The position numbers were made by a program, and so were the translations under genes. Below are positions 8,399-54,200 of a stretch of DNA of 64,000 bases, piece after piece. Location of the stretch: assembly GCA_003971905.1 (NCBI GenBank), contig RSEE01000122.1:1-64000 (forward strand). Reading direction: 5' to 3'. Numbering within the stretch: position 1 is the first letter of the stretch; every line of letters begins with the position of its first letter. This DNA is from Moniliella sp. 'wahieum' (taxonomy: Eukaryota). A model generated the notes under the pieces. The model did no database searches and was not told the origin of the DNA. It saw nothing but the letters and a program-made list of their open reading frames with translations.

Positions 8399-9035
8399 TG
8401 CCCGAGGTGGCTGAGGCGCTGAGGCCAGCGTCGCGTGGGCGTTTTCAGAGGCTGAGCGGCTCAGCCGCTCTGCGCTCAGCGCGCGCTCAGCGCCAGCACT
8501 AGTCAGCTCGATAGCCTCATCGATCATCGACATGCCCCTTTTCACCTTTCAAGTATCCGTGCCTTACACCCCCCACCCGACGATGCCACGCGGCACAGCC
8601 AAGAGAGCACGTACCCGAAGGAGGTCCATTTCTCTCGTTTGGCATGGGTAGTACCATAGGATAACGCGTTGAACGTTGACTCCAGGGCAGCAGGGGCACA
8701 GCGGATTGATGAGGCGAGGCGTAATTGGGTTTCATGCGACGAACCGCTAAAAAAAGGGATGGGTGATGCAATGCGAGAGATGGTCGAACGTACATTGAAC
8801 GTTCATGCAGGACACGCTCAGCGCTGAGGCTCGCATTCAACTTGCATATCCAGTGACGGCTTCAGCACGGGGGCAGTGCGGCGGCTGGGGCGGATCAGCG
8901 TAACCGGTAACCAAATCTTGCGTGGCTACTAAAAACAGATTTCTTTTTTGCCGCCTTTTCCCATCAGTTCTTTTTCTTTCCCCTTGAGCCCCTCTCTCTG
9001 ACCGCCCACCACCACCACCACCCTTTCACCCTCCC

Positions 9036-23538: not shown

Positions 23539-24469
23539 ATGGCCACCCCCGTGCTGGCCGCTGCCACCCCCTCCGCCCTGCGTCCAACGCCCGCCACAGC
23601 CGACAGCGCCGGCATCGTCACCTTCTTCGCCGCCGATGCCAGTCTGCCATCGACACAAACCGCCGATGCAACGCTCCTCTCGCTCCTCCTCGCCGAGCTC
23701 CCGGCCGCTCTGCGCCAGTCCACCATCGCCGCCTCCGACCGTGTCGCCCATCACACTGACCAGCTCCGAGAGGCTGGCTTCCACCACACCCTCGCAGACC
23801 CACCCGATATGGAGGTGCAGACGCTAGCTCGCCTCGACAAACTCGGCGCCCATGTTGGCGCAAACACGGCTGAGCGGTACGTGACCCTCCCCCCCTTCTT
23901 CCCCACACGCTTACCCTTCCCTCCATGGCAGACTCTGTGCGCTTCGCCCTCCTTTTGGAAGTGTGCTCGAGGTACTCAAGTTTGTCTGCAAGGATATGTG
24001 GATCCACCTCTGGGAACGACAGGTGGATAACTTGCGTACCAACCATCGCGTACGTCCCCCCCTCCCCCTGTCCATGTCCCGCGCTCCCAATTCCTGGTGC
24101 CACTCCTCCTTGCTAACATACATGATCCAGGGTGTGTATGCTCTCCAAGTCAACCAATTTGTCCTCCTCCGCTTTCTCGGCGTCTCCTCTGGCAATGCCT
24201 TTGCCCGTCTCGCTCGGCCCCAACTTGCCTGGGCCGCGGGCGTGGTACGCGGCGCCCTAGGCCGACTCGGCGTGCCAGCTACGGTGACGGTGGATGTACT
24301 TCCTCTCCCTCCGCCCGGCGAAGAAACTGCGCCGCTGGGACACAACAAATTCCTCCCGCCCGTCCTGTTCAATGTCAAGACGTTCCCCTCTCATCCTGCG
24401 CCTGCTCCTACCGTGACCCGCGCCTCTTCCACTGCCACCTCGACACGGCCTTCCGTCCTCTCCCCTTGA
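23539..24469 (+). CDS. TRS33: TRAPP complex subunit Trs33/TRAPPC6; introns ~23877-23930 and ~24049-24130
   Basis: RLDKLGAHVG, LEVLKFVCKDMW..LWERQVDNLRTNHR|GVYALQ, GVVRGALGRLG. Confidence 0.9.
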
Positions 24470-25026
24470 CTTTCCCTTGCGCACTTTGTACCCCTCTACC
24501 CTCTGTTTTCTCGTGCACATGCCCCGCAACATGTCCAGCTAACTCTCTCGGTCTGGTATGCGTGCCGTTACCTGTTAGGAAGAACTATCACCTACGGCCT
24601 ATGATAGAAGTAGGAAGCCGATCGGAACGAGGAGAGGACAGTACCTTACAGCATATACTCAGAGTAATCCATTGCACCCTTTTTTCCAGCTGGGTAATCA
24701 TCTCCCCTTCCTTCCCCCCTGCCTATTGATTGGCCTGTATTAATGGTGGCCATTTCGACGGTTCTCTCGACTCGCTTCTTAGCCCACGAGCTCATGGATC
24801 CGTTTTTCTTCTACACATGTGCCGTGTACCTAACAACTAGCCTACGCACTACGCACCGCATATGCTCATCGGTGAGACTCAGCTCGCCCAATCGTCGCCC
24901 AATTCGTCCGGCCCTCCCGGTTCGCCCGTTTGCCCGGTTTGTCCATTCGGCTGAGCCACGCTCCACGCGTTTACACATTATGCGTTACGCCCACAGAGCG
25001 CCGAGCCTTTCCTGTCGCCTTGGTGT

Positions 25027-25050
25027 TCAACGTTCAACGTTCAACGTTCA
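25027..25050. repeat. Heptamer array (TCA-ACGT)x3-TCA
   Basis: Read directly. Confidence 0.9.
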
Positions 25051-26153
25051 TACCCACAAGGAAATGTGCCAACGTGAGCTTACAAAAGAGAGTGGAGTAG
25101 GTCTATAACTGTCAATGATGCAGTCCCTTTTCCCCTTTTCCGCGTGCAGTCAGTCGGTGGTGCACGCATGGCTGCCAAGACGTGTCACATGATGTGTATG
25201 ATGCTTGAAGCTTGACATGACATATGACAGGAGACTGCCTCGTGGCTGAACAAGGAAGAGTGTCCTGAGTTGTATTACCGAATCTCGTAGTGCGGACGAG
25301 GGAGAACAGGGGGGGGGTCACCTGGGGTAACTCTGTAAAGAGTGTCCTGGGCAGAAAGGAGAAAACCCTGTGTGACATGGAACAGGTACCGGTAAAGCTC
25401 TGCTGCCCCACCGGCCACCCCTCCCCGAGACGCACGCTGCGTTCAGGAATATGTAGCAGGTACCCGGGGTACCGCACTACCCGTACCGGCCCTGCACCGA
25501 TGCCGAGGCGGTCGAGCAGGGCACGAAATAGACGCGTTCCGTTGTCATCAACTGTATGTATACCTTGCAAGAAGCCACACAAGGCCACACACACTACTGG
25601 CACTCCAACAAAAACGAATCGGGTCTTGGGCCCGTTGATTGATCATAGATTATCTCGATCGTCCCCATCGTCGTTACGCGAGTTACATACTCATCGTTGG
25701 CATATTATAGTGGCGAATAGTCAAGATCAAGACAAGGCCGGGGAATGTCAGGGAGGAACAAGACGGAGGGTACGGAACAAATGACCAAAAACGAGAGAGG
25801 AAAACGCGAAAAAGGGAAGAGCAAGTTGCCAAACCGGTCACAGTACTCGAGTACTCATTGAGGGCTCTCTTCCAGCGTTCAGCACGTTCAGCCAACTCCT
25901 ATGATAAAATGCTCAGCGCTCACACACCCGCGCAGTTCGAACAATCCCATTCCACAACCACCCGCTGCCATATTTCTCCGGGCGAGTGGCAAAAAAGGGC
26001 CAGATTGCAGCATTAGATCATGCATCGTGCGAGACCGTCCCATGCACAGATCACAATACATCATGTGTATATCCCACGAGCCGTGCCTCTTCTTAGTCTG
26101 TTGGTGCGCAACTGTGTATATGATCTGATCTAAGACTCCTGTGAGCGCGCGCC

Positions 26154-26184
26154 TGAGGCCTGAAGCTTGAAGCTTGAAGCTTGA
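26154..26184. repeat. Heptamer array TGA-GGCC-(TGA-AGCT)x3-TGA
   Basis: Read directly. Confidence 0.9.
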
Positions 26185-27662
26185 AGCGTGTAGCTTGAAG
26201 CTGGAAGAACTGTGAAACTGCTTACGGTCCAGTGCACGGCTACTGTGAAGAGTGCTAATGTAAATAGCACACAGTAGCAAAATGTTCTCATTCGAGGCAT
26301 GTGGCTGCCGATCCGTCGGTTTTTGCCACCCACGTATACATCGTGTGCATCATACTTCCTCTCAACCTACGTGCCTCATCGAATGAATTGTCCGTCCTGG
26401 CAGTGCCGTGGCATGGCAACCCAATGATCACAGTCACATCTGTGCGTCGGCCCAACCACAGCAGCTCAAAAACGGCATGTGCAATCTGTGGGCGCCAATA
26501 GGGGTCGGCCGGTCCGGTCATCGAAGTCATCGCACATGCTATATGCATCCCTCTGTCTGCTACTGCCATGTCTCGTGCCAAGAGACAGAGGGCAGAGTGG
26601 CTGGAATATGTAACAGAGAGAGGCTGTTATATACGTAACTTGGCCCGAAAAAGCCTACTCCGAGCGAACCAAGGTGGACTGGTGTTGGTTTTGGTGCACC
26701 TAAAAGTTTGTAGCTACTTCCAAGAAGCGTTGGGCGAATATCAATCGCCGTGTAGTAGCACCGGCCAAGAGATGTCGCATGTTTTTACCTTCAGAATCTC
26801 TGAGGCCTTGGTTGGCATGATGCATGAGCCATGATGCATGAGCTCTTGAACCACCACACGCCGAAGAGAGAGTTTGTTTTTCTGTTTGTTCTAGCGTATC
26901 GTTGCCGGTTTGGATTATATGAATGAATCACAAAATATGTAGTGCACCGCCATGCCGTGGTGGCGGTCGTGCTCTTCATCATCGAAATCACAATACCATT
27001 GCCCCTGCCTGCCTTGCCTTCCCAGGGCGGCGCAGTTGTGACCACATTGAATGTGTGCCGCAAGAGCCGAGAAGGATAAGAGACGACCGTAGTAGTCCAT
27101 CAAAGCATGTCATGCACACTTTGAAGTATGCATTCCAATCTATCTCTTCCCCCACGCAAACGGTGAAGAGCATACGTATATTTCTTCTGCATTGGGCCGC
27201 CTGTTAACAGGGTGGATATAGGATAGCTCTGGATGCGGTGGCAAAAAATCGGATACCCGTGGGCCTTGGAAGCCTTTTTGGAACGGAAGAATGACATGTG
27301 AATGTGACGGCGGTGGAGGCGTCCATGGAAGGCCGACACCTCGGGTGGTGGCTTGTGCCCCCACGCCTCCTGGAGCTCGTCGTCCTCGCATGATGCGCAT
27401 GATGCATGATGCACAATGCATGATGTATGAACGCGTGAGCTGCCGAAGCGCCCCCGTGCCTGAGTGGATGGGGCCGACGAGGCTGGCGCCCTGAGGAACT
27501 TCGCATTTCACAATCAAAGCCCATTTACTTCTGTGCCTGCGTTGTGTCTTCTGTGACATTGTGACATGGGGGAGCCATCACATAACTGTGACTTTCGTCA
27601 CGCGTACCAACTGCTCCTAGATCCCAAATCCTACTACTTCTTTCTTTGCTGTTGGCCAGCCT

Positions 27663-27712
27663 ATATACCAGAAGAAGACCACGAAACCATATACCAAAAG
27701 AAGACCACGAAA
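27663..27712. repeat. 24-bp direct repeat ATATACCARAAGAAGACCACGAAA x2 (period 26, one mismatch)
   Basis: Read directly. Confidence 0.85.
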
Positions 27713-29067
27713 AGGCGAGAGAGAGAAGGCCCGTGGGCATCTCCCAGGCGCCTGTCATAGCTACCACCAGTTCTCATGCATGTAGAACGGAAGGATTAGT
27801 GATCAATGATTCAAGAGCTACCCACACCGGTGCACCGTGTACTCATGCAACAGACGAACCAACATACAAACCCGAAAGTGGATGCCACGGCCGAGCACAT
27901 GTCCAGCGCGATCAGCTGAGCGCATTGAGCGCATTGAGCTCAGCCTGAGCGCTCTCAGGTTGTGGGCACAGCACAGAACGTAGAACGCTCATCGATCATC
28001 TCAGGCACTGCGCGCAATGCGAAACGATGTGGTGTATGGAAAGAAAGCTGCTGAGTGAGTGCAGCGCACTATAACCACCCGATGATTACTAACGTTAATG
28101 TGGGGCTCGCAGGTTCACTGAGAGTACCGAGGCACAGTCGAGAGGGCGCCGGGTAGCCAAGTACAAACCGCCAAACGAAAAAGGGGGACGCAATAAAGGG
28201 AACACATGGCGGAGCGTATAGTAAGTGTGGCGCCCACGATCCAAGTGGGTCTCGCGTGTGCAAATTTACTACCAACATCACATCCGTGGAAATGCCTTCT
28301 GAGCTTGTGAACGAGAAACCCTCAGTACTCAGGGGCGAAGATGAGAGGCGATGAGAGGCGATGAGAGGCGATGATGAGGTCCTCAGATCAGATCAGCGTG
28401 GTCAGCGTATATGGCCAGCACCTATATTAAGTCGTGGGAGTCTGGACATTTTGAGGCCTTCTAAGGCTCCCCCTTCGCGCTTCTCTTGGTCTCCTAAGGC
28501 CTCCCCAGGATTTTATCGGTTTCTTTTCGGCTTCCTCGCGCCACATCAACTTTTAAGCTGATGAGAGGGCCTCAACCATCTCATCTCACCCGTATCCCAG
28601 TCCTTTCAGAGGGCCCCAGATGATCTTCGACGATCTCTTTCAATGGTGCCCACTAAATGCTCTTTTCCGGGTCAGGCATGCAGACCAGGCTCACGGAGGG
28701 CACACCTCCCACTCCGGCCCACTGCTTCGACCGCGCGTCCGTCGTAGTCGCATGCAACGACGATTATATTCTGTCAGTAAGTACGTGCGCGCACGTCTGT
28801 ATCCAAACACGCAGACGCACGAAAAATATATATCCCTCCCTAGTAATACCTTTTCTTCTAATACACACCCCGCATGTGAGTCATTCATCCTTGCCTGCTC
28901 CAGACGGAGGGCGTTATATCGGCTTGGGGTCTGGGACCCTGCTGGTGTCGGAGGAATGGGGAGGATCGAGTTGGGAGGGGCATTGTGGACGCTGGAAAGA
29001 AGAGCTGATGGAGTGAAGTACTGAAGCTTGGAGCAGGCAAAAGAGTCGTTTGGGTAGAGGGGAGAGA

Positions 29068-30500
29068 TGAGACATGATGCATGATGCATGAGCGCATGAG
29101 CTGCTGCCAGAAATCAGGTTTCGATTACCTAAGAAACACGTTAGTTGCTCATTGCTAGTTTATCAAGCTGCTAGTTGGGTGTCTGAACGTCTGAACAAAG
29201 TCGCCGTTTCCATGTCACATGCATGTCACAAGTTGCATGCTGCCACACAAGTCACAAGTCACCGTCTGTCACAGGCATCACTGTGACTAGCGAGAATGAC
29301 TGTAGTGACTTGGCCGGGGACCGGTGACCGGTGCCGGGGACGCGTCACGCGTCACGCAACACCACAGTGTCCCGTCGCAAATAATAAGCTTTCCCACTCA
29401 TTATAGAAACAGGAACAGGTCACCAGGTCACTAGCTTCACTAGTTATTGTGAAGATCACCGGTCACTAGGTAACTGGTCACCGGTCACCGGCCACTGTTA
29501 GTAATTAGTAACTAGTAATACTAGCACTGGGTACGTACTCAGTAGAAAGGCTACCGGCTACCGGTTACCGGTTACCGGCAACTAGTCACTAGCTAGTCAG
29601 TCACTCGCTTAGCGCAGCGCTGGCGCTGAACCTCGTTGCTGAGGCTGACCGGTGACCGGTGACCTTACCAGACAGGGATGAAATCTGAGATCTGGGAGAT
29701 GGGCTATGGAGCGGTGCAGAAGGGTGCCCCGACCGCCGAACCCCAGCCTGTCGTGGAAAACGCACGGAAGGTACTTACTTGGCGTGCAATCTATATACGC
29801 AGGTGTTTTATTACTCGCCTGGCCTGAGATCAGAACGTGTGAACGTGTGAACGTTGTGAACGCACAGATTGAATATTGAATGTTCAACGTGTTCAACGTT
29901 CAACGTTCAATAACATCTTTCACATTAGACCTGCAAACGTAAGCAAGCCCCTGTAGGCTGTACCATTAACCATTGTTGAGCCTGAGGGACCAGGCTGCCC
30001 CCAGGCTGCCCGCTGGCCAATGCTTGTTTGGATGCCAGGGGCGAGCGAGCGAGGTGGTAGGGTTTGCTGGGGCCTTGTGTCCCTCCAGCCTGGGGCCGCA
30101 CGTAGGCCTCGGCCAGCGGTTCGCCCTGGCGTGCTGCATGCGTTGCCACGTATCCTGAACGATGATCGGTGATCATGCATCTTGGCACACAGCACACTAG
30201 TCACTAGTCACGCGTCACGCGTCACTCATCCTGCGGTCGGATCTCAGATCTCAGACAGCCCTCGGCAGGCACTAGGCGTACGACTGGCATACTGGCCGCG
30301 GGCTACGTACGGTTCGAACAGGCCTGGGGCCTGGGGCCTGGCTGCCCTGTCTTCTGGCCCTACGCGGGGCGGAAGCGCAGCGGTGCTTCCTTGGTCCAGT
30401 ACTGTGGTGCGCGTGCCGGCCCTCCAGAGCGCCCGGCGGGCGCAGTGTCGCCAGGCTGGCGTCATGTAGTCATGCATCATGCAGTCATGCAGTCATGCAT
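29068..30500. repeat. Dense cluster of TNA + 4-bp-palindrome heptamer arrays
   Basis: Examples: TGA-TGCA (29075), TCA-CCGG/CTAG (29456), YTA-CCGG x4 (29551), TGA-CCGG (29646), TCA-ACGT (~29890), TCA-CTAG/CGCG (30201), TCA-GATC (30244). Confidence 0.85.
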
Positions 30501-31323
30501 GCACCAAGCACCCTGCACGATGCACCATGCTGCATCGCCGCCAGACTGCCCGGTTGCGGGGGCGGGCACACGGCGACCAGCAGCCACCGCCGCGGGCACC
30601 ATGCGGGAGCCGGGGTGCTGTGGGTGCTGGCCGCGGTGTGTCGCACCCACACGCGCACCGCACCAGGCAGATGCGCCCGCGCTGCACCCTGGCCTGCCGG
30701 CGTGCTGGCACAGTGGCCGGCTGCGGCGCCGCCACGCGCTGCACCAGGCGGCTGATGCGCTGATGCGAGCGGCTGGAATAGGATGCGTGATGGGAGTAAG
30801 TCACCACTTTACCGGCCGTCGGTGCTCACCGCCGCACTCACCCATACGTGTCACCCATCCCGTCTCAGCTCCCGCAGCACACGCACAGTCACCCGTCCCA
30901 TCCAGCCCGCACTACACAGGCCCAACCAGCCAGCCAGCCAAGCCCACGGCACACGCTCCCTCGCCCTGCCCTGCGCTGGGCACGCCAGTCGCAGCCACCA
31001 CCACCACCTCCACCACCGCCACCGCCACCGCCACCGCCTCCTCTCAGCCCCTCCAGCCTCTCCACCCTCTCCGCGCCCATCCACCGCCCCCTCCCTCCCC
31101 CCCCTGCGCACTAGCAGCCGGCCGCTCATTTATACACGAAGCGCTTGCTGCTCCTCGCCACCCCTCCCCCCGCCCCCTCCCCTCCTGCCCTCCCGCCAGC
31201 GATGCCCGACACTGGCACCCACACAGCCACCCTTGTCGCTTCCTGTGTCGCCACCACCGCTGCTGCTGCTGCCTCTGCATCCCGTCTCCCTCCGCCCGTC
31301 TCCACCGTTGTGCGCCTCCCGCT

Positions 31324-33770
31324 ATGAACACCAGCCCTCCTCGTGCTGGCGCAGCTGCCGCCTCCTCCGGTGCGTCCAACAGCCCCCGAACCCCAACGCT
31401 TCCAGCCTCAACCCCTCTGCCTCCTTCTCCGCCCCCTTTGGTCCCTGGCCCCCCCAGCCCTGGTCCTCTGCCGATCCCTCCACCGTGGGCCCAAGCCCCC
31501 CCCCCGCCTCCTTCCGTCCTGCACCAGTCTCCGTCCCCCCTGCCGGCGCGCCTGGCATGTGGGACATCCGCTCTTGGTCCGACACGTTCCCGTCTGCCTC
31601 GGCTGCCCCTCCCTCGCGCCCTGTTCCTCGCCCCGAAGCAACCAGCCCAGACGCCATGCACGGTCTACTGCCCACCCCACAACAGTCCTCCGTCAACCCC
31701 CACCTACCTCTCCTCCCTTCTCTCTGCGCCGTATGATCCCTCGCCCAACGTAACCGACCCTTCCCTCCTCCCCGATCCGGGACAGACCCCGCCGCTGCAG
31801 CGCCACATGTCCATGGCCAGCACGGCTCAAACTTCCAAACCCACCTCTCGCTCTGGCGAGTTTCTCCTTGACCCCTCCTACCTCCCCTACCAGCGGCCCT
31901 TTTCCTTCCCAAAAGCCCCCGCCCCCATCTATGGGATCCTTCACCTTCGACACATCTGCCTTTGGTCCAGCTGGCTTTGGCGCCTTCCCTCCTCCCCCTC
32001 AGCCTGCTGCCGCGTCCCAAACGTCGTCGTCGCAATGGCCGCCACCGCAAGCGCAGGTGCCAACAATGGGCCAATCTCGATGGCCGATTTGCCGACGGGG
32101 ATGCAGGGTCGCTTGCGCTCGGTTCTGGGCCCCTCTCATCGTCGCGGCACACTGGGCGCTATGCCACAGTGGTCCAAGCCTGCTTCCGACGGGTTTGACC
32201 CTTCGATCGGCCGGCTTGCCGAGTACCCCTCGGCGCCCCTTTGGCCCGGCTCTCCCTCACAGCCGTCGGTGCCAGCGAACGAGTCGGATTCAACGTCGCG
32301 AACGCCTTCCTTCCAAATCACCGCCTCGGGTGGCGTAGTCAAGGGCGCAACGTTCCTCTCTCGCAACGTGCTTCCTCCCTCGGCGTTGGGCGGGCACGCG
32401 GCTTCCCATCCTCCTGGCTTGGGCGCCCGCGTCCTTCGTCCCGATTCGGCTATGGGCAGTGGAATCAGTATGGCGGCCTGCATGGCCGTACCGAGTTGCA
32501 GTCCATGGCGTATGGCGGCGCGGCAACGGCCGCTGCCGCGACGGAATTTACTAAACGCAAAGGATGGCCGCTGCGCGTGGTAGAGGAGTTGATTGATTTT
32601 GTTCATGTTCTCGATCCTAAGGGTACCATCCTCTTTGCCTCGCCTAGCATTGTCGACTTGACCGGGTGGAAGCCCGAGGAAGTCAAAGGTCAAAAGTTGG
32701 TCGATGTACGTGCCTGTCCCTTTCATCTTACCGTGTCTCCCCTTGTACCGTATTACGTGAGGAGCAGAGTGGCTGATCGTTTCTTCTTTTTTTTCTTTTT
32801 GCTTGCTCTTTGACGTAGTTTGTCCATCCTGATGACGTGCAAGCGGTGCGAGAGCATCTCGACCCCGCCATCCAAGTGCCGGGGGCGGATGATTATGTAC
32901 ATGCGGTTCCGGTGCAAGCCCGAGAAGAGCAAGAAAGCTGGGCGAGAGGGGGATACGTCTTCCGTCGGCGATTCCTCTTCTACACCTTCCTCTACCAGCG
33001 AGGCGGGAAAACGGGGCAACAAGCGGAGACCGCGGGCCTGACTCAGGTCGGCCGCGTCATGGCCAACAATGTGCCTTATGTGGTGTTTGAGTTTACGGGT
33101 CATCCTTACTTTCCTCCTGCTGAGTTTGCTCAGTTGGCCAAGGAGCGTGCGCAGCGGCATGCGGCCAAGAAGAACGCGTCTCCGCGTACGGCCAAAGCGG
33201 CCTCGCTGCCGCTAACCCTTCCATCGAGAACACAAGCACCAGACGGCAATGAGAATGACAACCCTGAAGAGAATGCGTTGCAATGTTTCTTTTGTTCCTC
33301 TCGTGTCCATCCCACGCCCAACATTTCCATCCTCGACTCGTTCCTGGAGCTCAAGGTGGAAAATGAACGGTTGCGGTTGATGCTGCAGAAACTGAATATG
33401 GAGGAAGAGGCTGAGCTGCCTTCGTCCAACGCTGCTGCTCGATCGCCTCGTCTGCCCACGCGAACCGACGCGAGCGAGGAAGACCATAAGAACAAGAAGA
33501 AGAAATCACGCCCGACGAAGGCGACCACGTCTGTGCCGATTGTGGTCGGGTGGACTCGCCCGAGTGGCGCAAAGGTCCCCTCGGACCCAAACGCTGTGCA
33601 ACGCATGCGGATTGCGCTGGGCCAAACGCATCAAACGCCATGGCGGCGATCCCAACGCTGCCGCCATCGCTTTTCATCAACAAGCTTCCGCCGCAGCACA
33701 ACAAGCCGCTGCAGCTCCCACCGCTACTCCTTCCTTCCCCTCCAACCCGGGTATGGGCTTCCACCCCTAA
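31324..33770 (+). CDS. wc-2: White collar-2-like PAS + GATA zinc-finger transcription factor; intron ~32706-32818; frameshifted
   Basis: EFTKRKGWPLRVVEELIDFVHVL..ILFASPS..LTGWKPEE|FVHPDD (PAS); LDSFLELKVENERLR (coiled coil); CADCGRVDSPEWRKGPLGP.TLCNACGLRWAK (GATA finger). Confidence 0.9.
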
Positions 33771-35628
33771 CCGGCCTGCCCCCCTTCCCTGTCCTGTTTC
33801 CCCCCCTCGTTTCCCCCGTTTTCCTCGTTTCCTCGTTTCCCTCGCTTTCATCGTTTCCCTCGTTTCCCTGCTCGCCCGACCCTATCTATCTGCGGCCACG
33901 CATTCGCTCCCTTCCCTCCGTGCTCTTTTTTTCTTCCCCTTTCCCCTCACCTCGCTCCCTGTCCACCCCCCTCCCCCGCGCCCCGCTGTCTGCCCCCCCC
34001 CCCCCCCCCCCGTCACTTTGACTGTTTCCCCTCGCGCTTGCTACGGTATGAGAGGCGGCGCTGTCCTGCCTCACCCCCCTCGCCCTTCACCCTCGTCTTT
34101 CACCCTCGTCTTTCACCCCTCCACTTACCTCTGAACTCTCGTCTCCCGCCAACGTCTCCAATCCGTATACTTGTACCGACCCCTGGCACTGGCAATGGCA
34201 CTGATACTGAGTACCGAGTAATACTGAAACTGAACACTGAGCGCACTGAGATCTGAGAGCACTTCACTGAACTCTGGACCCTGAACCCTGAGGCCTGAGG
34301 TTAGTCTAAGCCCTGAACCTTGAGCCCTACTCCACTCCCTCTCCTTGTCCGGGTAGGGGTAGTGATGCACGAGGATCGATGAGCGCTCAGGCGCTCAGGG
34401 CTCATGCCTGCCTCAGGGCTCAGGCTGAGCAGCGAAAGGCAGGGCAAGGCAGGGTCGGGTCTGGTCTGTGATAGATGATAGAAGACGGATGATTCGATGA
34501 TAGAAGATGGGAGATAGAAGATCATTAGGAGAGGCTACAACGCCCTCCCCCGCTGCACAGATAGTGCCCCCGCACTGCACCTTGAAGTCTCCCATTTTGT
34601 TCCCTTTGGGGGGGCATTGCGGTTTGCAGAGAGGGATACGGAGATGCGTACTTCATGAAGATAAAGACCGGCCTGAAGCTGCTGAAGCGTCAAGCGTAAG
34701 GCCTGAGATGGAAAGGAAACTAACTGCGTAAGAGTTCTGAGCCTGAGCGCTGAGCCCACTCTGACGTGCACCTCGTTTGTTCATGCATCGTGCAGCAGTG
34801 CATTGAACATCGAACGTTGACTTGCCGGGGGGCGATGTATGAGTTATGAATCATTGGCCCGGCACGGGCCCGTCTCTATTCTCCCCTGACATATGTGCAT
34901 GACGAGGGCCCTTGGGAGGTATATATATGGCTCCCTGGGTCGATCGCGTCGCGATCTTGCCCGAGTCAATATAGTCACTATATATGGTCACTAGTAATTA
35001 GTCACTAGGTACGGGCCCTCGCAGCAACGTCCGAAACCTTCGATCGCGGATCTCGCGGGAGGATCCGACTAGGTGCCGCAGAGTGACTAAGTATAGTAGT
35101 GACTATAATACCTTGAACCTTGGGGTGCCGTTTGGCGTACATATTGAGCAACCACGGCTTTTCACGCCACGGTTGGAGGTGTGGCCTGCGTCTGTCAGAT
35201 GTAGAGGCGAACGGTAGGACTCTAGGATCTATAAGGTCGAACCGGGTCTAAGATCTAAGATCTAGCCCCACCTCAGGCCTTTATTACCCCCGCATATCTA
35301 CATTTTTCGACAGATGAGGTCCCGAGACATCTCTCAGAAAGTCATCGATCTCATCGATCACATCTGGGGCCCACGAGATGCTTTACTTAATGACAAAAAA
35401 GCTATTCAAGTATTCCAGCTTCAAGAAAGAGATATGCTTCAAGTTCTGGAGATCAGATGATTAAGATGTTTGAAAAAGGGGCGGTGATTGGTGAGCAAAG
35501 AAAGTATCAGCTAGTAGTAGAGGAGAGGAAGAGGAGAGAGGAGGCCCGGGGAAAGAACGGGGGCTAGCAAGGGTGAAAATATGAATAGTGAGTCATTTGG
35601 TGAAGCGCGAAAAAGCTTGGCGCTTGAA

Positions 35629-35710
35629 AAGAGAAGAGAAGAGAAGAGAAGAAGAGAAGAGAAGAGAAGAGAAGAGAAGAGAAGAGAGAGAAGAGAAGAA
35701 AGAGAAGAGA
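35629..35710. repeat. Polypurine microsatellite, approximately (GAGAA)n
   Basis: Read directly; imperfect pentamer run of about 80 bp. Confidence 0.9.
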
Positions 35711-41300: not shown

Positions 41301-43065
41301 GAGCAAATCGCCTTCAGGGCGAGAGGGATCTCAGTGATCATTCGTCCCGTGAACAGATCGTCCAGCCAGGCTGATCTGAGTGTTGTGATCGTAGCCAGTG
41401 TGTCGGCGAAGGCCTCGGCGGCCTCGACTCCCATCGTGTTCCCACCCATGACCACTTGCTCAACGCCGACCTGGGCGCGCAAGGCACACAGATACGGCTC
41501 GATGTCGCTTGCCGTTTCGAGACGAAGACCTTTGCCTTGAATGGAGAAAATCTGGTTGGGCTGGACCGAAGATGCTTCGTCCCCATTTTCATCGGGGACG
41601 GGGATATCATGGGGTATGGCATCGGGGGCATCATCCACTTCGTCAATCGTAGACTTCTCCTCTCTGTCCTCCTCGGGGTTTACCTCGGTCTCCTTTTCGA
41701 TCGCCTCCGGGTTCTCCTCGACCACCTCCGGGTTCTCCTCGACCACCTCCGGGTTCTCCTCGACTTCCTCCGGGTTCTCCTCGACTTCCTCCGGGTTCTC
41801 CTCGATCGCCTCTGAGTTCTCCTCGATCGCCTCTGTTTCGTCCTCAATCGCCTGCGTTGTTTCCTCGATCGCCTCCATTTTGTCCTCGATCGTCTTGGCC
41901 CCCTCGTCCTGGACCACGACCTCGTCCGGAGCATCACTTAGATCATCATCTGAAATATCGGACAAAGGTGTCTCATCCACCTCTGTAACATCCACCAATG
42001 CGCTTCCCAGGCCTTGCGCTTCCAGTGCTTGACGCAATGCCTCAATCTCTGGCCCTTCCCCATCCACCAAGTTGCTGTTCACGTCCAGATGAGTGAGACG
42101 GGGCCAAGGATTGGAGGCGATCAGGTGGGATAAAGCCATAATGTTTGCCGGGCTGAGCTCACAACAACTCAACCCGATCTGGGTGAGGATGCATGCCGTT
42201 CGACCAACAGCGCGTCCATCAAGAGCTGACCTCCTTTAGGCCGAAGAAGTGTATCAGTCAAGTGGAGCTCCTCGAGATTGGGCCAGAATCGGAGACACTC
42301 AGCAACAGCCTTGGCACCGCGTAAGGTGGCAGTGTTGTCACCAAGGTCGAGAATGCGCAAATGGGGGTTCTTGGCCAGACCCGAGCGCACGATCACCTCA
42401 AATCCTTGCATGCGGATCCCGTTCTGTGCCATACGCACTTCTTGCAAGGTGCCGTGCGCGGCGAGCGCACGCGCCCAGTTCAATGCGCTGCCATCCTCCA
42501 GCCGATTGCGCCCGCATTCAAGCACCTGCAACTGAGACGACTCGCCTTGGGCAGCAGCTTTCTGGGCGCCACGGGCCAACGCATCAGCCACAACGATGCC
42601 TGCCTCGGGCCCCAGACCATTGTTGTTAAGCCTGAGAACACGGAGGCCGTTGGCAGCCTCGAGGAGAGGGACGAGCGGCGAGCATACACGTTCGCCAAAT
42701 GCATTGTCGGACAAGTTGACCTGTTCCAGTGCCCCGCCAGGGGGCACGAGGCTGGCGAGGGCAGTGCAGAGCGCAGTGAGCGCGCCGGGGATCTCGTCGA
42801 TGCTGCGGCTGGTAAAGATGTTGGACAGGTCAATGGAGCGGAGAGAGGTACAGGTGGCGAGAACCGTAGCGAGCGCCTGGGCGGCAGGGACGCCGATGGT
42901 GTTGTCGCTGAGGCGCACCTCGTCGACAGCGCCGCGCTGGGCCAGCTCTGCGAGCTCGGCGGCATACGTGGCTGCATCCTCAGCGGAATCGAGGGTGAGG
43001 CCGCGGCCAGCAAGCGAGAAGATGCGCGGGGCGCTCTCGGCGTCACTCTCAGCGGCGTCAGACAT
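38360..43065 (-). CDS. RNA1: Ran GTPase-activating protein (Rna1/RanGAP1 family) with three tandem LRR + acidic-tail units and a probable C-terminal transmembrane segment; intron 40362-40420
   Basis: Units start IFSLAGRGLTL, IFSIQGKGLRL and IFSIAGNHLLL. Units 1-2 have IFTSR/LFTGR, LSDNA(F/L)G, NNGLGP, GRNRLEDG, QNGIR and L(G/Q)DNT. Units are joined through an indel site (~42180) and a phase-0 GT-AG intron. Confidence 0.85.
41690..41890 (-). repeat. Coding 21-bp tandem repeat (E-A/V/E-I/V-E-E-N-P) in the linker between RanGAP units 1 and 2
   Basis: EAIEENS-EAIEENP-EEVEENP-EEVEENP-EVVEENP-EVVEENP-EAIEKET. Confidence 0.9.
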
Positions 43066-47095: not shown

Positions 47096-50000
47096 TCACG
47101 CGCCAAACGGCGGTTCCTGGCCCGGATGGGCAAAGCTCAAATTGGGCGTGCTGGGCTGGGTAACGCCCGGGGTAGCCCCCGGGGTACGCATCCAGCGACT
47201 GCCCAACGACATGCCTCCCATGGCAAATGGGTTGTCGGGGGGAACGGCAGGGGTACTTGCGTCCCAAGCCCCCCCAAACCCAGGTGGGAGGAACGAGGAC
47301 CAGAACGTTTCGCTCAGCAACTGTTCACTTGGTTCGTCTTCTTCCCGTGCGCCTGGCATGAGCGGGAAACCGAGTGTAAATTGCGCCGCTTCCGCCGGCT
47401 GCATCGTCGGACTGGCAGCGCGCGAGGCGAGCCGCGAAGCAGGTCGGGTAGGCGGACGCGAATGCAATTGCGCTTGCGATTGCGATTGGGCAGCGACCAG
47501 GGCAGCGACAATGCTATTGACGTGGGCGCCCGTGGTGCGTTTGGTGCTGTGGGGCGTGTGGGGCGAGGCGGCGCGGGAACGGTGGGGCGTAGTAGCGTTG
47601 GACACCGACGGCTGGGTACGGTCCGAGTGACTTTGCACGAGCATACGAAGAAAGGTGGCGTAGAGGTAAGGCGTGTGGGTCGGTCCAACAGCGAGCGATT
47701 GGAGAAAGTTGGCCGTGTGGCTGACCAACCGGAGCAAGTGCGCTTCGTCGCTGTACGCGGCAAACGCCGGCTGGAGCAACTTGAGCAAAAACACACACGC
47801 ATATGCCACCATGACAAACTGGCTGTCGGGCGCGTAGCGCAAGTCGCGGCCCAACAGACACGCCGCTTTGATGATCCCCTTGGCCGCATGCAGACAACGC
47901 GAATAGTACGTCGGCGTGTCGAGGCCCGTGCTGGTTGGGTGGTCCAGAGCATGTTGCAGCCCAAACGAGTTGAGCAACAGGACGGCATAGTGGTACCGTA
48001 CCGGACCTTGGCGGATCAGAAAGTAGAGCGCCCGCTGGATGTAATCGGCATTCTCGGGGGCGAATCCGCCTCCACATCCGGTTCCTCCCCCAACAGACGC
48101 AGGATCAACCTTTCCTCCCCGATCCGATTCTCCGACTCGGTCGGCTCTTGCTCTGGGCCAGGCTCTCGCTCTTGCTCGTGCCCAGGTTCCCGCTCGTGTT
48201 CCTGCTCGGGCAAGTGCTCGTGCTCTTGCTCGTGCTCCTCTCCATGCTGGGGCTCGTGCTGGGGCTCATGTTCATGTTCATGCTCAGGCTCAGGCTCATG
48301 TTCACGTTCATGTTCACGTTCATGTTCATGCTTATGCTCATGTTCATCTTTATGCTCATGTTCATGTTCATGTTCATGCTCGTGCTCATGGCCTTGACCT
48401 GAATCTTGGCCTTGCCCGCTTCCCGACGCGTTCTGGGCCGGTGTACTACGTTCCCCCTCGGCCGGCATGGGCGCCGTGCGCTCGACGCCAGCTGGGGTTG
48501 GTTCCTTGGTTGGTTCCGCAGCAGCGTGGCGCAGAGCACGATAATGCTGCATCAAATCATCAAAGCGCCAGACCTCCTTCCACTCTTCCAGCTGCTGGTT
48601 AAAGATCTTGAGCACGGACGGGTAATCAATATCGAGGTGCAAGCCCGACACGGACGTGGTAGAAGAATAGAGAAAGTCCATTTGACGCGACTGGATTCGC
48701 TGCAACTCCACCAGCCCCGAGATTCCCACGTCCCAAGGGCGCGAGTGGCGTTGCATGCACCACGGACGCGAGTTGCGAATCAGCCAGTCTTCCCGCACAC
48801 TGTACGCCTTGCCCATCTGCGCGGCAAACCCACGGTCGATGGTAAAGCACACGTACCACGTACGTTCGCGGTTCAGCAGTTCCCGTTCTCGCTCTGCATC
48901 GTCCTCTTGCGGGCCCATGGCTTTGCGGTCCAGGTTCAAGTCCGTGGCCATGCGAATGGCCAAGCCCGAGAACATCCACGCCGTATCTTGCTCAAACTTG
49001 GCCGACGGCTCGCCCCACAACGACAACAACAAGAAGGCCTGCACAATTTCCACCGATTTGAACCCGTGTTCGAGCGAGACAAAGGCGCATTGCTTGGCGT
49101 ACTTGAGAGCTTGCGCATGTAGCTCGGGCCGCGCAGCATAGAAGCGCGACGCAACCGCCAAGATGGCCGTGAAGAGGAATGGAGACCGGGCACAGACAAA
49201 GGTAGGTGTGTGCCAGTCCGGGTCGAGCAAAAAGGCATACTGCATGCAATGCACAAAGAAAATCCGAAACAGTTCCACCACCTCCTCACTGTCCACCACC
49301 CCATCTTGCAAAATCTCGGGCGGCATCTCCCGTTCAATCGCAATCTGACGCAAGGGCAGAATGGAGATGGCCGACGGCTTAAAGTACGTCGAATTGGCCA
49401 CGCCCAATGGGATCTCCTCGTCCCCAGCCAGAGAGGGCACCACATCGGGACCCGCACCGCCCGACGCGGCCGCAGCAGCGGCAGCAGCAGCGGTAGACGC
49501 GCTGTAGCTTGGCGAATTGCTCGGCCCATCCGACACGCTGGCGGGAGGGTTGCTGTCCATGCGCGTGGCCGAGGTGCCACGGTGCTTGCGACGGGACCGC
49601 TGGGCGTTGTGCAGACTGGCCTCGGCCAAGAGCCCTAGTGGGTTGAGCGTGTTGTCGGGTAACGCATGCAGACGTGGCGACGTGGTGCGCGAGTGGTTGT
49701 CCCGGCCCTTGCGTGAGGGGGCGGGTTGGTACGGCTTGAGGCGGTCCTTGAGGCTCGCTCGCCGATCCACGCTGTCCCCGCCGTTGGAGCCGGCCGATTG
49801 GCCCGAGGTATTGGACAGCACCGAATCGCCGCCATTGGTAGAGGGGGAGTGGAGGTGGGGCATGGGCTCGGCAAAGCGCAAGTCGGGGTGGCGGGTGGTC
49901 GTGCCCGAGCGCGGACGCTTCTGCATCGTCGAAGTCAAGGTGGGCCGGGGCACAAATGCCGGTGGAGCAAAGTCGGTGGGCGCCGGGGGGGCAGGTTCAG

Positions 50001-50854: not shown

Positions 50855-51076
50855 GGTGGGTGCACTCCGGTTCGTGCTGTGGCCCGGGGGCCGGATGGCC
50901 GGAGCGGCGGCGCCCCCGCGCGCCTGCTGACGTCAGCCCTGCTCACGTCAGCGTCTCGTCCGGGCCAGTCCGGGCCACATGATCGAGGATCGGTGGCCCG
51001 AGTCCCGCCGCACCGGCACGACGCTGAACATTTGACAACGCGACACGCCGCGCACAGACACGCGCAGCCATACGAG

Positions 51077-51148
51077 TCACGCGTCACGCGTCACTCCGCC
51101 AGACCCAGGGACGCGTCGCGGACGGCGGCTGGAGAGCACACGCGCGTT
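51077..51148. promoter_or_regulatory. Cluster of MCB-like ACGCGT/CGCG elements upstream of MSH6(-ECO1), in a divergent promoter
   Basis: TCACGCGTCACGCGTCA (51077-51093), GACGCGTCGCG (~51110), ACACGCGCGT (~51139). Confidence 0.5.
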
Positions 51149-51215
51149 TTCCCTCGGCTGGTCCACCGCGCGCTCTTGCCCTCTGCCCACCACCATCTCC
51201 CCTCCCTCTCCTCCC

Positions 51216-54200
51216 ATGGGCAAGCAGAGCTCCCTCTTCGGCTTCTTTGCCGCCGCCAAGGCGCCTCCTCCCCCCGCCGCCGCCCCCGCCGGCACCAACG
51301 CGGAGTCCAACGCGGAGACCCAGGCGGAGGCCAACGCGCAGACTCCAGCGGAGACCAAGACCCAGACCAAAGCTAGTGCCAAGGCCAAGGCTAACACCAA
51401 GGCCAAGACCAGCACCAAGGCCAAGACCAACACCAAGACCAGTCGCGCCGCCCCTGCCCAATCCAAGCCCACTCCCAAGCCCACTCCCAAGCCCACTCCC
51501 AAGCCCACTCCCAAGCCCACTCCCACCCCCCTCGACCGGTCCAACTCCCCCCCCGGTCCAACCGACGAGATGGACATTGACGCGTCTTCCCCCCCGCCGC
51601 TTTCCGCCACCGCCACCGCCGCGACCACGACCGCGTCGCCCCCCTCCCCACCCACGCCCATCCCACCGCTGCCCACCGCTGCTTCCCCCGCCGCGTCAGA
51701 GGAAGACATTCCTGGTGTCGTACGTACCTCCCCTCCTCACGTTGTGCTCGCTTGCTCCCGTGCCGTCTAACATGCCCTACTTAGCGTCGCACCCGTCGTC
51801 GCGTGATCAATTATGTCGAGTCGGACGCGTCCGACTCGGACGATGCCCCGGCGCCCAAGCGGGCCAAACTGGCGCGCGGCCGGACGCGCCGTGCGCGGTC
51901 GGAATCGGAAGAAGACGACTTTGCTCCGTCGGACAGTAGCGCCAGTGACAATGAGAGCGAGATGGCTTCGGCTTCGGCTTCAGCGTCGGAAGCCGAGTCG
52001 GCATCGTCCGAACCGGAATCCGAACTGGAATTCTCCACTGCCATCACCAAGAAGAAGGGTAAGGGTAAGGGAAAGAGCACACTGTCTGCTGCGCGACCGC
52101 AGTCACGCTCGCGCGTTCCTCCCTCTGAAGCGGGTAGACCGAGTGGGTCGCCGCCACGCGAGGCAGGGCGGACAGTGGTAGTCAAGGGAAAAGCGAACGA
52201 CCAACCGTTTGCCTTTCTCCATCCTCCGCGCGACAAGGACGGCAATGTGCGTGGTTCGGCGGCGTACGATCCGCGTACGCTGCTCATCCCCGCGTCGGCC
52301 TGGACGAGCATGACGCCGTTTGAGCGGCAATTTTGGCAATTGAAGCAGGACCGGTTTGATACCGTCTTGTTTATTCAAAAGGGCAACTTTTACGAACTGT
52401 ACGAGGACGATGCTACGCTAGGCCACCAAGTGCTCGATCTCAAGTTGGTCGATGCGCCCAAGATGCGCATGGTGGGCGTACCGGAAAAAAGTTACGAAGG
52501 GTTTGCAGCCAAACTGCTCGGCTTGGGATACAAGGTGGGCAGGGTAGACCAGGACGAGACGGGCGTCGGACGCGATGTCCGCACAGCCCAAGTCAAGGGC
52601 AAAACCATTGTCCAGCGCACCCTGCGCCATGTGTTGACCAGTGGCACGATTGTCGAACCGTCAGCATTGCAAGATGATTTGAACAGCTACTGTCTTGCCA
52701 TCTGCCAAGCGCCGCAGGGCAGCGGCATCGGTGTCTGTACTCTGGATGCGGCCACGGCCGAGTTCCGTTTGGCCAGCCTTCCGGACGAGGCGGGGCTGGA
52801 ACTACTGCTCCGCTCGTTCCGGATCAAGGAGGTGTTGTTGGAAAAGGGGCGGAGCGAGGCCACCCTGCGTTTGGTCCGCGCTTGTCTCCCGCCTTCGGCC
52901 CAACTGATTCAACTTACCAGCGGAGACGAGTTCCCTTCCCCCGCCATGGCCAGCGAGGTCCTGCGCACATTTTTCCCCGATGCGCTTCCCGCCGGGGTAC
53001 GCGACACGGTGCAGGCGGATACGCCCGAGCCTCTGGCCGCACTGGGTGCGATGCTTTTGTACCTCCGTACGCTCAATTTGGACCAGGACTTGCTGGCGAG
53101 TGACAACTTTGGTCCGCTGCTATGGCAAGGTGATCGGATGGAGTTGGATGCCCAGACGTTGACTCACCTCAACATCTTGACCAACGACCAGGGTACCGAC
53201 GAAGGCACGTTGCATGCGTTGCTCAACCACTGCCAATTGCCCTGGGGCAAGCGGCTGCTGCGGCATTGGCTCTTGCATCCGCTTCGGGACATTGGCCAGC
53301 TCAACCAGCGCCTGGACGCCGTGCAAGATTTGTTGATGGACGATGATTTCCACCAGGCCTGGGCCACGTTCGCACGCACGTTGCCCGATGTGGAACGGGT
53401 GGTAGCGCGCATCCGTGCTGGGCGGGCCAAGCCACGGGAATTTGTTGCGTTGCTCGAAGCGTTGGGCGGAGTGGACGAGGCGGTGGAGCAATTGCGCACG
53501 TACGTACAGGACCACCATGGTACCCATGCCATCGAACGCATCTTGGCTTCCATCCCCTCCTTGGCACAGGTCGTGCTTCCCCTGCGCGACCAATTTACTA
53601 TTGCGCCTGACCTGGGCTTTGATCCGGTCCCCGGCACCGACGATGCGTATGACCAAGCTCAGGCTCACCTTGCCACGCTCGAAGAGGAACTGGACACGTT
53701 ACTCGACACGATTGCCAGCGAACTCAAGTTGGCCCGGACCAAGGTGCAGTACCGCCATAGTGGGACCAAGGAGATTTACCAGGTCGAAGTGCCGCGCAGC
53801 ACCAAGGTCCCTCCCAACTGGATCCTCCTGGGCCAGACCAAGGACAAAGCGCGTCACTACCCGCCCGCGGTCAAGCAACGTGTCCAAGCGTTGCAGCATG
53901 CGAGGGAAGCTCGCTTGGCCAGCCTCACGCAGTTCCGACTGCGCTTGTTTGACCAACTCGCCACCTTGGCCCCGACCATCCTGCTGGCTGCCACCCACTT
54001 GGGCCAAGTCGACTGTCTCGTCTCCTTGGCAAGGGCCAGCGACGCAATGGGCTCAACCGTACGACCCACCCTGGTCCAATCGGACGAAGCGCTGGTGGAG
54101 CTGACGCAGGTACGTCACCCCACCCTTGCTACCAAGAGCACCTTTGTGCCCAACGACGTCTCCCTTGGTGGGAAGGCGGAAGATGTGATGCTTCTCACGG

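Follow-up and report, generated by a model that had tools for sequence, protein, structure and literature searches.

Heptamer arrays in a gene-poor fungal stretch

We analysed a 64-kb window (the whole stretch of DNA under study) of the fungus Moniliella sp. 'wahieum', contig RSEE01000122.1, for arrays in which a triplet such as TCA or TGA alternates with a 4-bp palindromic core in a 7-bp register. All counts given here refer to this one window. The DNA is fungal, with a base composition of ~60% G+C, and its open reading frames (ORFs) with family matches are those of a Zn2Cys6 regulator, a MutS homologue, Msb1, a UBR-box N-recognin, a TRAPP subunit, an ESCO-type acetyltransferase, and Cdc73. 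A search of the window against Rfam returned no family at gathering score. Between the TRAPP-subunit ORF and a long ORF with a PAS fold lies gene-poor DNA, in which ORFs of at least 70 amino acids (aa) give no Pfam family at a convincing score (24.7-30.2 kb). This stretch, upstream of the PAS-fold ORF, is far longer than the window's other intergenic gaps. It holds three arrays in which, according to an earlier sequence-only reading, the palindromic core changes while the register is kept. All three are present, letter for letter, where that reading had placed them:

23885-24466, + strand: ORF for a TRAPP subunit (Pfam match)
24700..30200: gene-poor stretch of ~5.5 kb between the TRAPP-subunit ORF and the PAS-fold ORF, holding all three arrays
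26154..26207: array 1, cc / TGA ggcc TGA (agct TGA)x3 / ag, first reported as 26154-26184
29551..29592: array 2, left part, gg / CTA ccgg CTA ccgg TTA ccgg TTA ccgg CAA ctag TCA ctag
29551..29603: array 2 as a whole, continuing after 29592 with ctag TCA g TCA / ct
30197..30228: array 3, ctag / TCA ctag TCA cgcg TCA cgcg TCA / ct, first reported as 30197-30224
30208-32583 / 32199-32813, + strand: long ORF with a PAS fold (Pfam match)

In what follows, l and r are the two bases to the left and right of a site, l' and r' are their mirror copies, and TSA stands for T-(C/G)-A. Written in this way, the cores of the three arrays can be compared with the flanks on either side. Array 1 has a decayed continuation to ~26207 (agcg TGT agct TGA agct GGA ag; 6.7 copies, 87% matches), and its original site was probably cc-TGA-ag; the lone ggcc at its left edge mirrors cc and agct mirrors the right flank ag, as predicted from both sides. 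The letters of array 2 point to an original site gg-TNA-ct, with ccgg (four copies) mirroring the left gg and ctag mirroring the right ct, the latter fit requiring removal of a 4-bp GTCA duplication that interrupts the right end of the array. Array 2 also contains an 11-bp junction, TCA ctag ctag TCA. In array 3, ctag mirrors the left flank ag. Across the three arrays five of six flank predictions hold, each with a chance probability of 1/16, and each array switches core a single time. Defined strictly, as three identical T-N-A anchors with two different palindromic cores, mixed-core arrays number two in 64 kb (26154 and 30201).

A window-wide grammar of palindromes and mirror bases

The arrays belong to a much larger set of structures. 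The window has 51 cases of a 4-bp palindrome enclosed by two identical T-N-A triplets, compared to a mean of 2.1 and a maximum of 6 in 200 block-wise dinucleotide shuffles, which bears out the earlier suggestion that the heptamers form a system. The core is palindromic in 25 of 38 TCA-4-TCA structures (13 are non-palindromic) and in 21 of 43 TGA-4-TGA structures (22 non-palindromic); for all identical-triplet flanks pooled, TCA and TGA included, there are 151 palindromic and 1739 non-palindromic cores. Within the 11-mer structure the outer base is A in 32/35, T precedes it in 28/32, and the middle base is C in 13, G in 12, A in 2, and T in 1. The pooled target profile shows T at position -1, C or G at 0 (90/104), and A at +1; preferences for G at -4 and for C at +4 are weak (45/104 each). 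The system is thus specific for T-S-A. Palindromes are enriched only at core lengths of 4 bp (51/91, expected 5.7) and 8 bp (4/33, expected 0.13), with no enrichment at lengths 2, 3, 5, 6, and 7 window-wide, and at least 14 different cores are in use. In total we count 68 junctions, which we call scars in view of the origin favoured below (7 bp, 46; 8 bp, 12; 9 bp, 7; 11 bp, 3), in 53 chains, with 52 putative original sites in the 64 kb. Perfect 10-bp palindromes with unlike anchors and different middle bases (TCA-core-TGA or TGA-core-TCA, e.g., at 8818, 13847, 14583, and 34380) are also present, 10 compared to ~4.5 in shuffles, and could reflect a small class of events that are truly inverted.

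The core of a scar is set by its own flank. The two core bases beside an outer anchor are, in 33 of 40 same-anchor chains, the reverse complement of the two bases across that anchor; the offset control gives 9/40. The match is on the left only in 14 chains, on the right only in 9, on both sides in 10, and on neither in 7. The 23 one-sided chains are not duplications of an existing unit, because two new inverted bases lie inside them. If each scar mirrors the bases adjoining it, paired mutations become unnecessary. The sequence-only reading had held that each switch of core needs two coordinated, palindrome-preserving substitutions; the mirror rule, together with the flank predictions for the three arrays, leaves that claim without support. 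We also considered a 3-bp duplication of T-N-A with added mirror bases and rejected it by reasoning, as the mirror bases would in that case repeat T-N-A itself instead of the variable flank.

Junctions of other lengths extend the rule. At a period of 8 bp there are 12 structures of the form l-TSA-r X l-TSA-r, and X complements the adjoining base of r or l in all 12. At a period of 9 bp there are seven structures of the form l-TNA-r XX l-TNA-r (six with TSA, one with TAA), in all of which XX is r', l', or one mirror base per side; four of the seven are inexplicable by flanking duplication. Three junctions at a period of 11 bp read r r' l' l and fit both flanks. For TSA, structures of the mirror type make up 12/12 at 8 bp and 6/6 at 9 bp, compared to a chance level of 24/77 and 16/98 for other central triplets. 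The junctions of 8 bp (12), 9 bp (7), and 11 bp (3) thereby retain a target duplication of fixed length, the 7-bp l-TSA-r, on both sides of the joint. At 26816-26843 lies an exact 14-bp tandem duplication, (ca TGA tgca TGA gc)x2, whose middle junction, gc+ca, is either what is expected of an intact 7-bp duplication without mirror bases or the product of duplicating a whole scarred unit.

Doubled 4-bp palindromes between two copies of the same T-N-A form a further class (4/85 compared to 0.33 expected), with identical cores in 4/4:

8476: gcgcgcgc
14897: ctagctag
29215: catgcatg
29586: ctagctag

One of these four structures fits the left flank only. Either both overhangs of a break were kept at these sites or the core was duplicated by 4 bp. 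Having only four cases, all with identical cores, we dropped independent retention of both overhangs as a line of evidence.

Arrays with at least two junctions are heterogeneous, six of the nine mixing junction types or lengths. The arrays beyond the three above include both mixed and homogeneous examples:

25027..25050: homogeneous array at gt-TCA, (TCA acgt)x3 TCA
27391..27409: array at ca-TGA-tg, with tg-cg-ca (9 bp, one mirror base per side), then tgca (7 bp)
29068..29101: array at ca-TGA-gc, with tgca, tgca, then gc-g-ca (7, 7, 8 bp)
29646..29662: homogeneous array, TGA ccgg TGA ccgg TGA, right flank cc
29833..29862: array at tg-TGA-ac, tg TGA ac g tg TGA ac gt tg TGA ac (8 bp, then 9 bp)
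29884..29912: array at gt-TCA-ac, junctions of 9, 7, and 7 bp

In the array at 29833..29862 the extra bases, g and gt, are one- and two-base mirror copies of ac. Unequal junctions of this kind occur inside single arrays, and slippage therefore cannot be their origin. The units of these arrays are not all copies of one 7-bp unit, as those of a slippage microsatellite would be. Together with the 23 of 40 chains that carry new inverted bases, the heterogeneity of six in nine multi-junction arrays upholds the earlier view that single-unit slippage cannot make these arrays, although slippage may lengthen long homogeneous runs.

Two groups of arrays show a larger-scale likeness. Between 29830 and 29912, TGA-ac arrays precede the central TGA atat TGA and TCA-ac arrays follow it, each set being the reverse complement of the other, and as single-stranded DNA the segment would form one long hairpin (-19.6 kcal/mol, z -3.3). 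It is either an inverted duplication or a pair of like sites in opposite orientation. Dispersed 38-nt stretches at 26817-26854, 27406-27443, and 29067-29104 are 71-82% alike, lie on ca-TGA-gc/tg arrays, and end in GAGCTGC in two of the three cases; repeated hits on one and the same target 7-mer are one explanation, copying of small segments inside the stretch the other.

These data bear directly on the possibility that slippage made homogeneous arrays, which then acquired coordinated double substitutions through selection for symmetry or through correction of quasi-palindromes. Long homogeneous runs do exist (25027; 26161-26207), arrays of at least three units are over-frequent, and the unit to the left of the array at 51077, cgag, is one step from both ctag and cgcg. 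Single-stranded folding of the arrays also beats that of shuffles (z -2.9 to -4.3), but the palindrome content makes this result trivial. The single-junction scars with one mirrored flank (23/40) could not be duplicated from an existing unit, junction lengths or types are mixed in 6/9 multi-junction arrays, and array 1 would need a third matching change, in its flank. Further, among 32 T-N-A triples at 7-bp spacing in the window, neighbouring cores are the same palindrome in 9, different palindromes in 2, a palindrome beside a non-palindrome in 14, and neither palindromic in 7. Of neighbours that differ at two positions 2/8 are palindromic, compared to the 1/9 given by two random substitutions. 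The table of adjacent cores, which the sequence-only reading had put forward as a check, thus carries no signal of compensatory change, on small numbers. Moreover, a 2- to 3-nt arm without a loop would be no substrate for hairpin-templated correction. We regard double substitution as very improbable. The sequence-only reading had offered selected symmetry or strand-templated correction as the two explanations; what survives is that the palindromes derive from the complementary strand, whereas neither selection for symmetry nor correction of quasi-palindromes finds support.

Chance is another possible explanation of the mixed-core arrays, in which independent short repeats would merely have come to adjoin one another. 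Only two strict mixed arrays exist, and different palindromes 7 bp apart, counted without regard to anchors, show no excess (227 compared to 204-261 at other distances). Against this, independent placement of the 32 links at 24.7-30.6 kb predicts 0.16 pairs abutting in register where two are observed (P(>=2) = 0.011), so mixed arrays are commoner than chance juxtaposition, on very small numbers, and five of six flank predictions hold where each had a chance of 1/16. With T-S-A as the middle triplet there are 20 different-palindrome cases, ~12 per 1000 triplets compared to 3.55 for all triplets (~3.4-fold), as would be expected because scars end at T-S-A. Chance adjacency is, in our estimation, a negligible contender.

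A third possibility starts from array 3. An identical 22-mer, ag TCA cgcg TCA cgcg TCA ctc, which contains two ACGCGT motifs, occurs at 30206-30227 and 51075-51096. The first copy is the one upstream of the PAS-fold ORF; the other has this position:

51075..51096: second copy of the 22-mer, without the ctag unit, between the divergent Zn2Cys6 regulator and MutS genes

No homology between the two ACGCGT arrays extends beyond the 22-mer. The double ACGCGT module resembles the yeast MluI cell-cycle box and may be a module of that kind. One reading of the two copies is that a pre-existing double ACGCGT module took a left-mirroring scar at 30201, in which case 51075 would serve as the unscarred comparison.

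The arrays as a whole might then be clusters of promoter binding sites for dimeric transcription factors, for example of the MluI-box type, with the symmetry selected for protein recognition. The presence of the 22-mer in two promoters fits this idea, as do the number of ACGCGT motifs in the window (29 compared to 15.9 in shuffles), the four copies upstream of MutS (51079-51585), and the restriction of scars to non-coding DNA. Indeed, scars are confined to DNA outside long ORFs, except for one 8-bp case within the regulator ORF that is probably due to chance; absence from coding DNA is, however, expected of any 7-bp insertion. A constant motif is not what we find: there are at least 14 cores, each set by its own flank, and only the ACGCGT subset (29340, 30210, 51079) fits. 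One motif explains neither the variety of cores nor the mirror-base junctions of 8, 9, and 11 bp, and selection may retain products such as ACGCGT without explaining how they arose. Binding-site selection is accordingly an improbable origin for the arrays.

Some repeats in the window are unrelated to the lattice, namely, (AAGAG)17 at 35629-35710, a run of 19 C at 33993-34011, a 21-bp unit repeated 9.3 times in a leucine-rich-repeat ORF (41697-41892), and hexamers in the Zn2Cys6 ORF (48192-48390). A search of a metagenome collection for relatives of the MutS ORF gave 55 pattern matches, none of them confirmed, and no related contig. For positions 24800-34700, a query for public sequencing runs listed none.

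Serial repair scars as a possible origin

It seems to us fairly probable that the arrays are serial DNA-repair scars at single T-(C/G)-A sites, left when a transposon excised and closed the flanking DNA into hairpins. On this proposal, a dimeric enzyme with a 7-nt stagger would cut at the symmetric T-S-A, and a cut-and-paste element would duplicate the 7-bp l-TSA-r. When the element excises, hairpin-capped flanks would remain. A nick in the hairpin 2 nt from its tip would give a 4-nt palindromic 3' overhang, r r' on the left end and l' l on the right, and ligation of either overhang to the other flank's recessed 5' end would produce TSA + 4-bp palindrome + TSA, a net gain of 7 bp. Because the duplex ends would stop at T-S-A after a 2-nt nick, the dominance of the 7-bp class would need no ad hoc deletion. 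Nicks nearer the tip, or retention of both overhangs, would yield the rarer 8-, 9-, and 11-bp junctions. The hairpin chemistry is thus presumed, and so is a transposon as the agent, for which hAT elements that duplicate 7 bp offer the nearest known parallel.

Each scar would add a T-S-A, so that the same site could be hit again. Use of the right-end overhang would place l'l cores on the left, and use of the left-end overhang would place rr' cores on the right. The resulting array, l (TSA l'l)m TSA (rr' TSA)n r, would have at most two core types and one switch, each flank carrying on the core of its own side. Two-sided addition of scars would in this way make the core switch once, in register, without any substitution.

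Several observations weigh against a transposon origin. No transposase domain was found with Pfam in 93 of the 95 ORFs of at least 200 aa, nor in 62 ORFs of at least 70 aa at 23.8-30.4 and 33.8-38.4 kb. A search for inverted repeats with flanking direct repeats found no element in the window, and neither did a duplication-first search of 1091 pairs, in which the two hits were both array artefacts; the agent would therefore be known from its scars alone. Among the 8-bp junctions, 10 of 12 are equally plain 8-bp tandem duplications (X being the base just outside), so the 8-bp class alone is no proof of mirror bases. An intact 7+7 duplication without a mirror base occurs once, and double overhangs appear to have been kept only where both are identical (4/4). 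The anchors of array 2 are not T-N-A in three of six cases (CTA, CTA, CAA), and later substitutions and probably slippage must be assumed there. The cgcg cores of array 3, whose right flank is ct, mirror neither flank, which is the one failed prediction, and cgcg is mirrored by neither flank at either locus of the 22-mer. Scar density reaches 4.4 loci per kb (26 in 5.9 kb), which is unusual for excision footprints. Finally, loci with at least three events are too frequent for uniform targeting, five being observed compared to 0.93 simulated (p = 0.0004); the long runs must owe part of their length to slippage or to preferential use of sites that already carry a (palindromic) scar.

This last comparison comes from a simulation with uniform targeting in which each scar adds one target, set against the region at 24.7-30.6 kb, where 40 junctions fall at 26 loci (18 single, 3 double, 4 triple, and 1 quadruple) among 234 T-S-A sites. 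Loci with at least two events number 8, compared to 5.6 simulated (p = 0.13). For mixed-core loci, the same re-hit model gives 0.52 where two are observed (P(>=2) = 0.09).

The missing element, the very high scar density, and the re-use of scarred sites above the prediction of uniform targeting all suit a process that needs no element. A host-encoded or domesticated hairpin-forming nuclease, or some other form of break repair, could cut nnTSAnn with a 7-nt stagger, and repair would then write the scars. The balance of perfect and decayed structures also fits: perfect 10-mers are ~49 above shuffles and one-mismatch forms ~36 above (standard deviation, 7). As a rough guide to age, this excess is consistent with scars accumulating over a long time and up to the present, and the larger number of perfect structures suggests that the process may still be running. 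However, the 7-bp duplication and the mirror bases need a staggered insertion and then hairpins on the flanks, both of which a transposon supplies. We know of no element-free process that supplies the two together. Further, the search for an element covered 64 kb only, and a few copies elsewhere in the genome would suffice. We consider an element-free origin rather unlikely. Equally doubtful is its more specific form, in which a hairpin-forming nuclease, tolerated or domesticated by the host and directed at nnT(C/G)Ann in non-coding DNA, would produce the scars continuously and seed its own targets.

If the transposon proposal is correct, the genome is a dense record of one break-and-repair reaction, whose letters preserve the choice of target, the stagger, the position at which hairpins open, and the outcome of end joining. 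Seemingly designed palindromic repeats, even arrays that seem to call for paired mutations, could then arise without selection for symmetry, and promoters would have a definite way of gaining new palindromic motifs. Behind the scars would stand a highly active element or nuclease whose 7-bp target is centred on T-S-A, a kind undescribed for this lineage in the literature searched. A literature search found no description of T-S-A-centred palindromic heptamer scars in fungi, and one paper considered, PMC13234504, proved unrelated. Were a nuclease responsible, each event would add a new target and a 6-bp palindrome (A-xyy'x'-T), building arrays, and candidate sites for dimeric factors would keep entering promoters, such as the double ACGCGT module of the two promoters described above. 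For annotation, the warning is that heptamer arrays would be neither a regulatory code nor ordinary microsatellites.

Comparison with known systems

P nucleotides of V(D)J recombination arise when Artemis nicks a hairpin ~2 nt off its tip, which gives a 4-nt palindromic overhang and two mirror bases. V(D)J coding joints thus share off-centre hairpin opening and mirror bases with the scenario proposed here, but they are vertebrate, somatic, and without target duplication, whereas the scars described here are germ line and lie in a fungus. Footprints of Tc1/mariner elements consist of TA, bases from the element end, and TA, with a symmetric middle between the duplicated targets. Like the present scars, they are short and stereotyped and stand between two target copies. 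We ruled out a Tc1-like footprint made of element-end bases, because the Tc1 middle is constant and the middle here varies and mirrors the flank. Template switching at quasi-palindromes likewise makes perfect palindromes from the complementary strand. Correction of a quasi-palindrome, however, needs an imperfect inverted repeat with a loop, while the arms here are 2 to 3 nt long, have no loop, and come with a 7-bp insertion instead of a substitution.

The closest likeness is to transposons that leave hairpins on flanking DNA, as transposases of the hAT, Transib, and MULE groups do in the account given in part of PMC5499845, where host nucleases such as Artemis may open the hairpins. Two fungal examples have target duplications of the right length. 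hAT7 is a hAT lineage of rust fungi with 7-bp duplications, which groups with fungal hAT, Ac, and Tam3, and Kyakuja of Laccaria bicolor likewise has 7-bp target duplications, going by the portion of Kojima 2025 (PMC12730594) available to us. Both are basidiomycete DNA transposons, with a 7-bp target duplication as in the present case (PMC12730594). They come, according to the same extract, from Pucciniales and Agaricomycotina and not from the Moniliella lineage, and no homologue lies in the window.

Footprints are better described for Ac/Ds. In Candida albicans they are short deletions or palindromic P-nucleotide insertions, with two predominant types, and the Artemis-related Pso2 is mentioned in that work, as far as the excerpt of PMC5873905 extends. 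Footprints of hAT elements in general, as partial accounts of Ac/Ds in plants, budding yeast, and Candida albicans present them, keep the target duplicate on both sides of the joint, as here. The same excerpt (PMC5873905) points to further common features, with P nucleotides centred on the bases adjoining the break, short deletions opposite them, and a few products that dominate. Unlike in Ac/Ds, the duplication here spans 7 bp instead of 8 and has T-(C/G)-A at its centre; a single product prevails, a 4-nt palindrome between two T-S-A; and the scars are chained and extremely dense.

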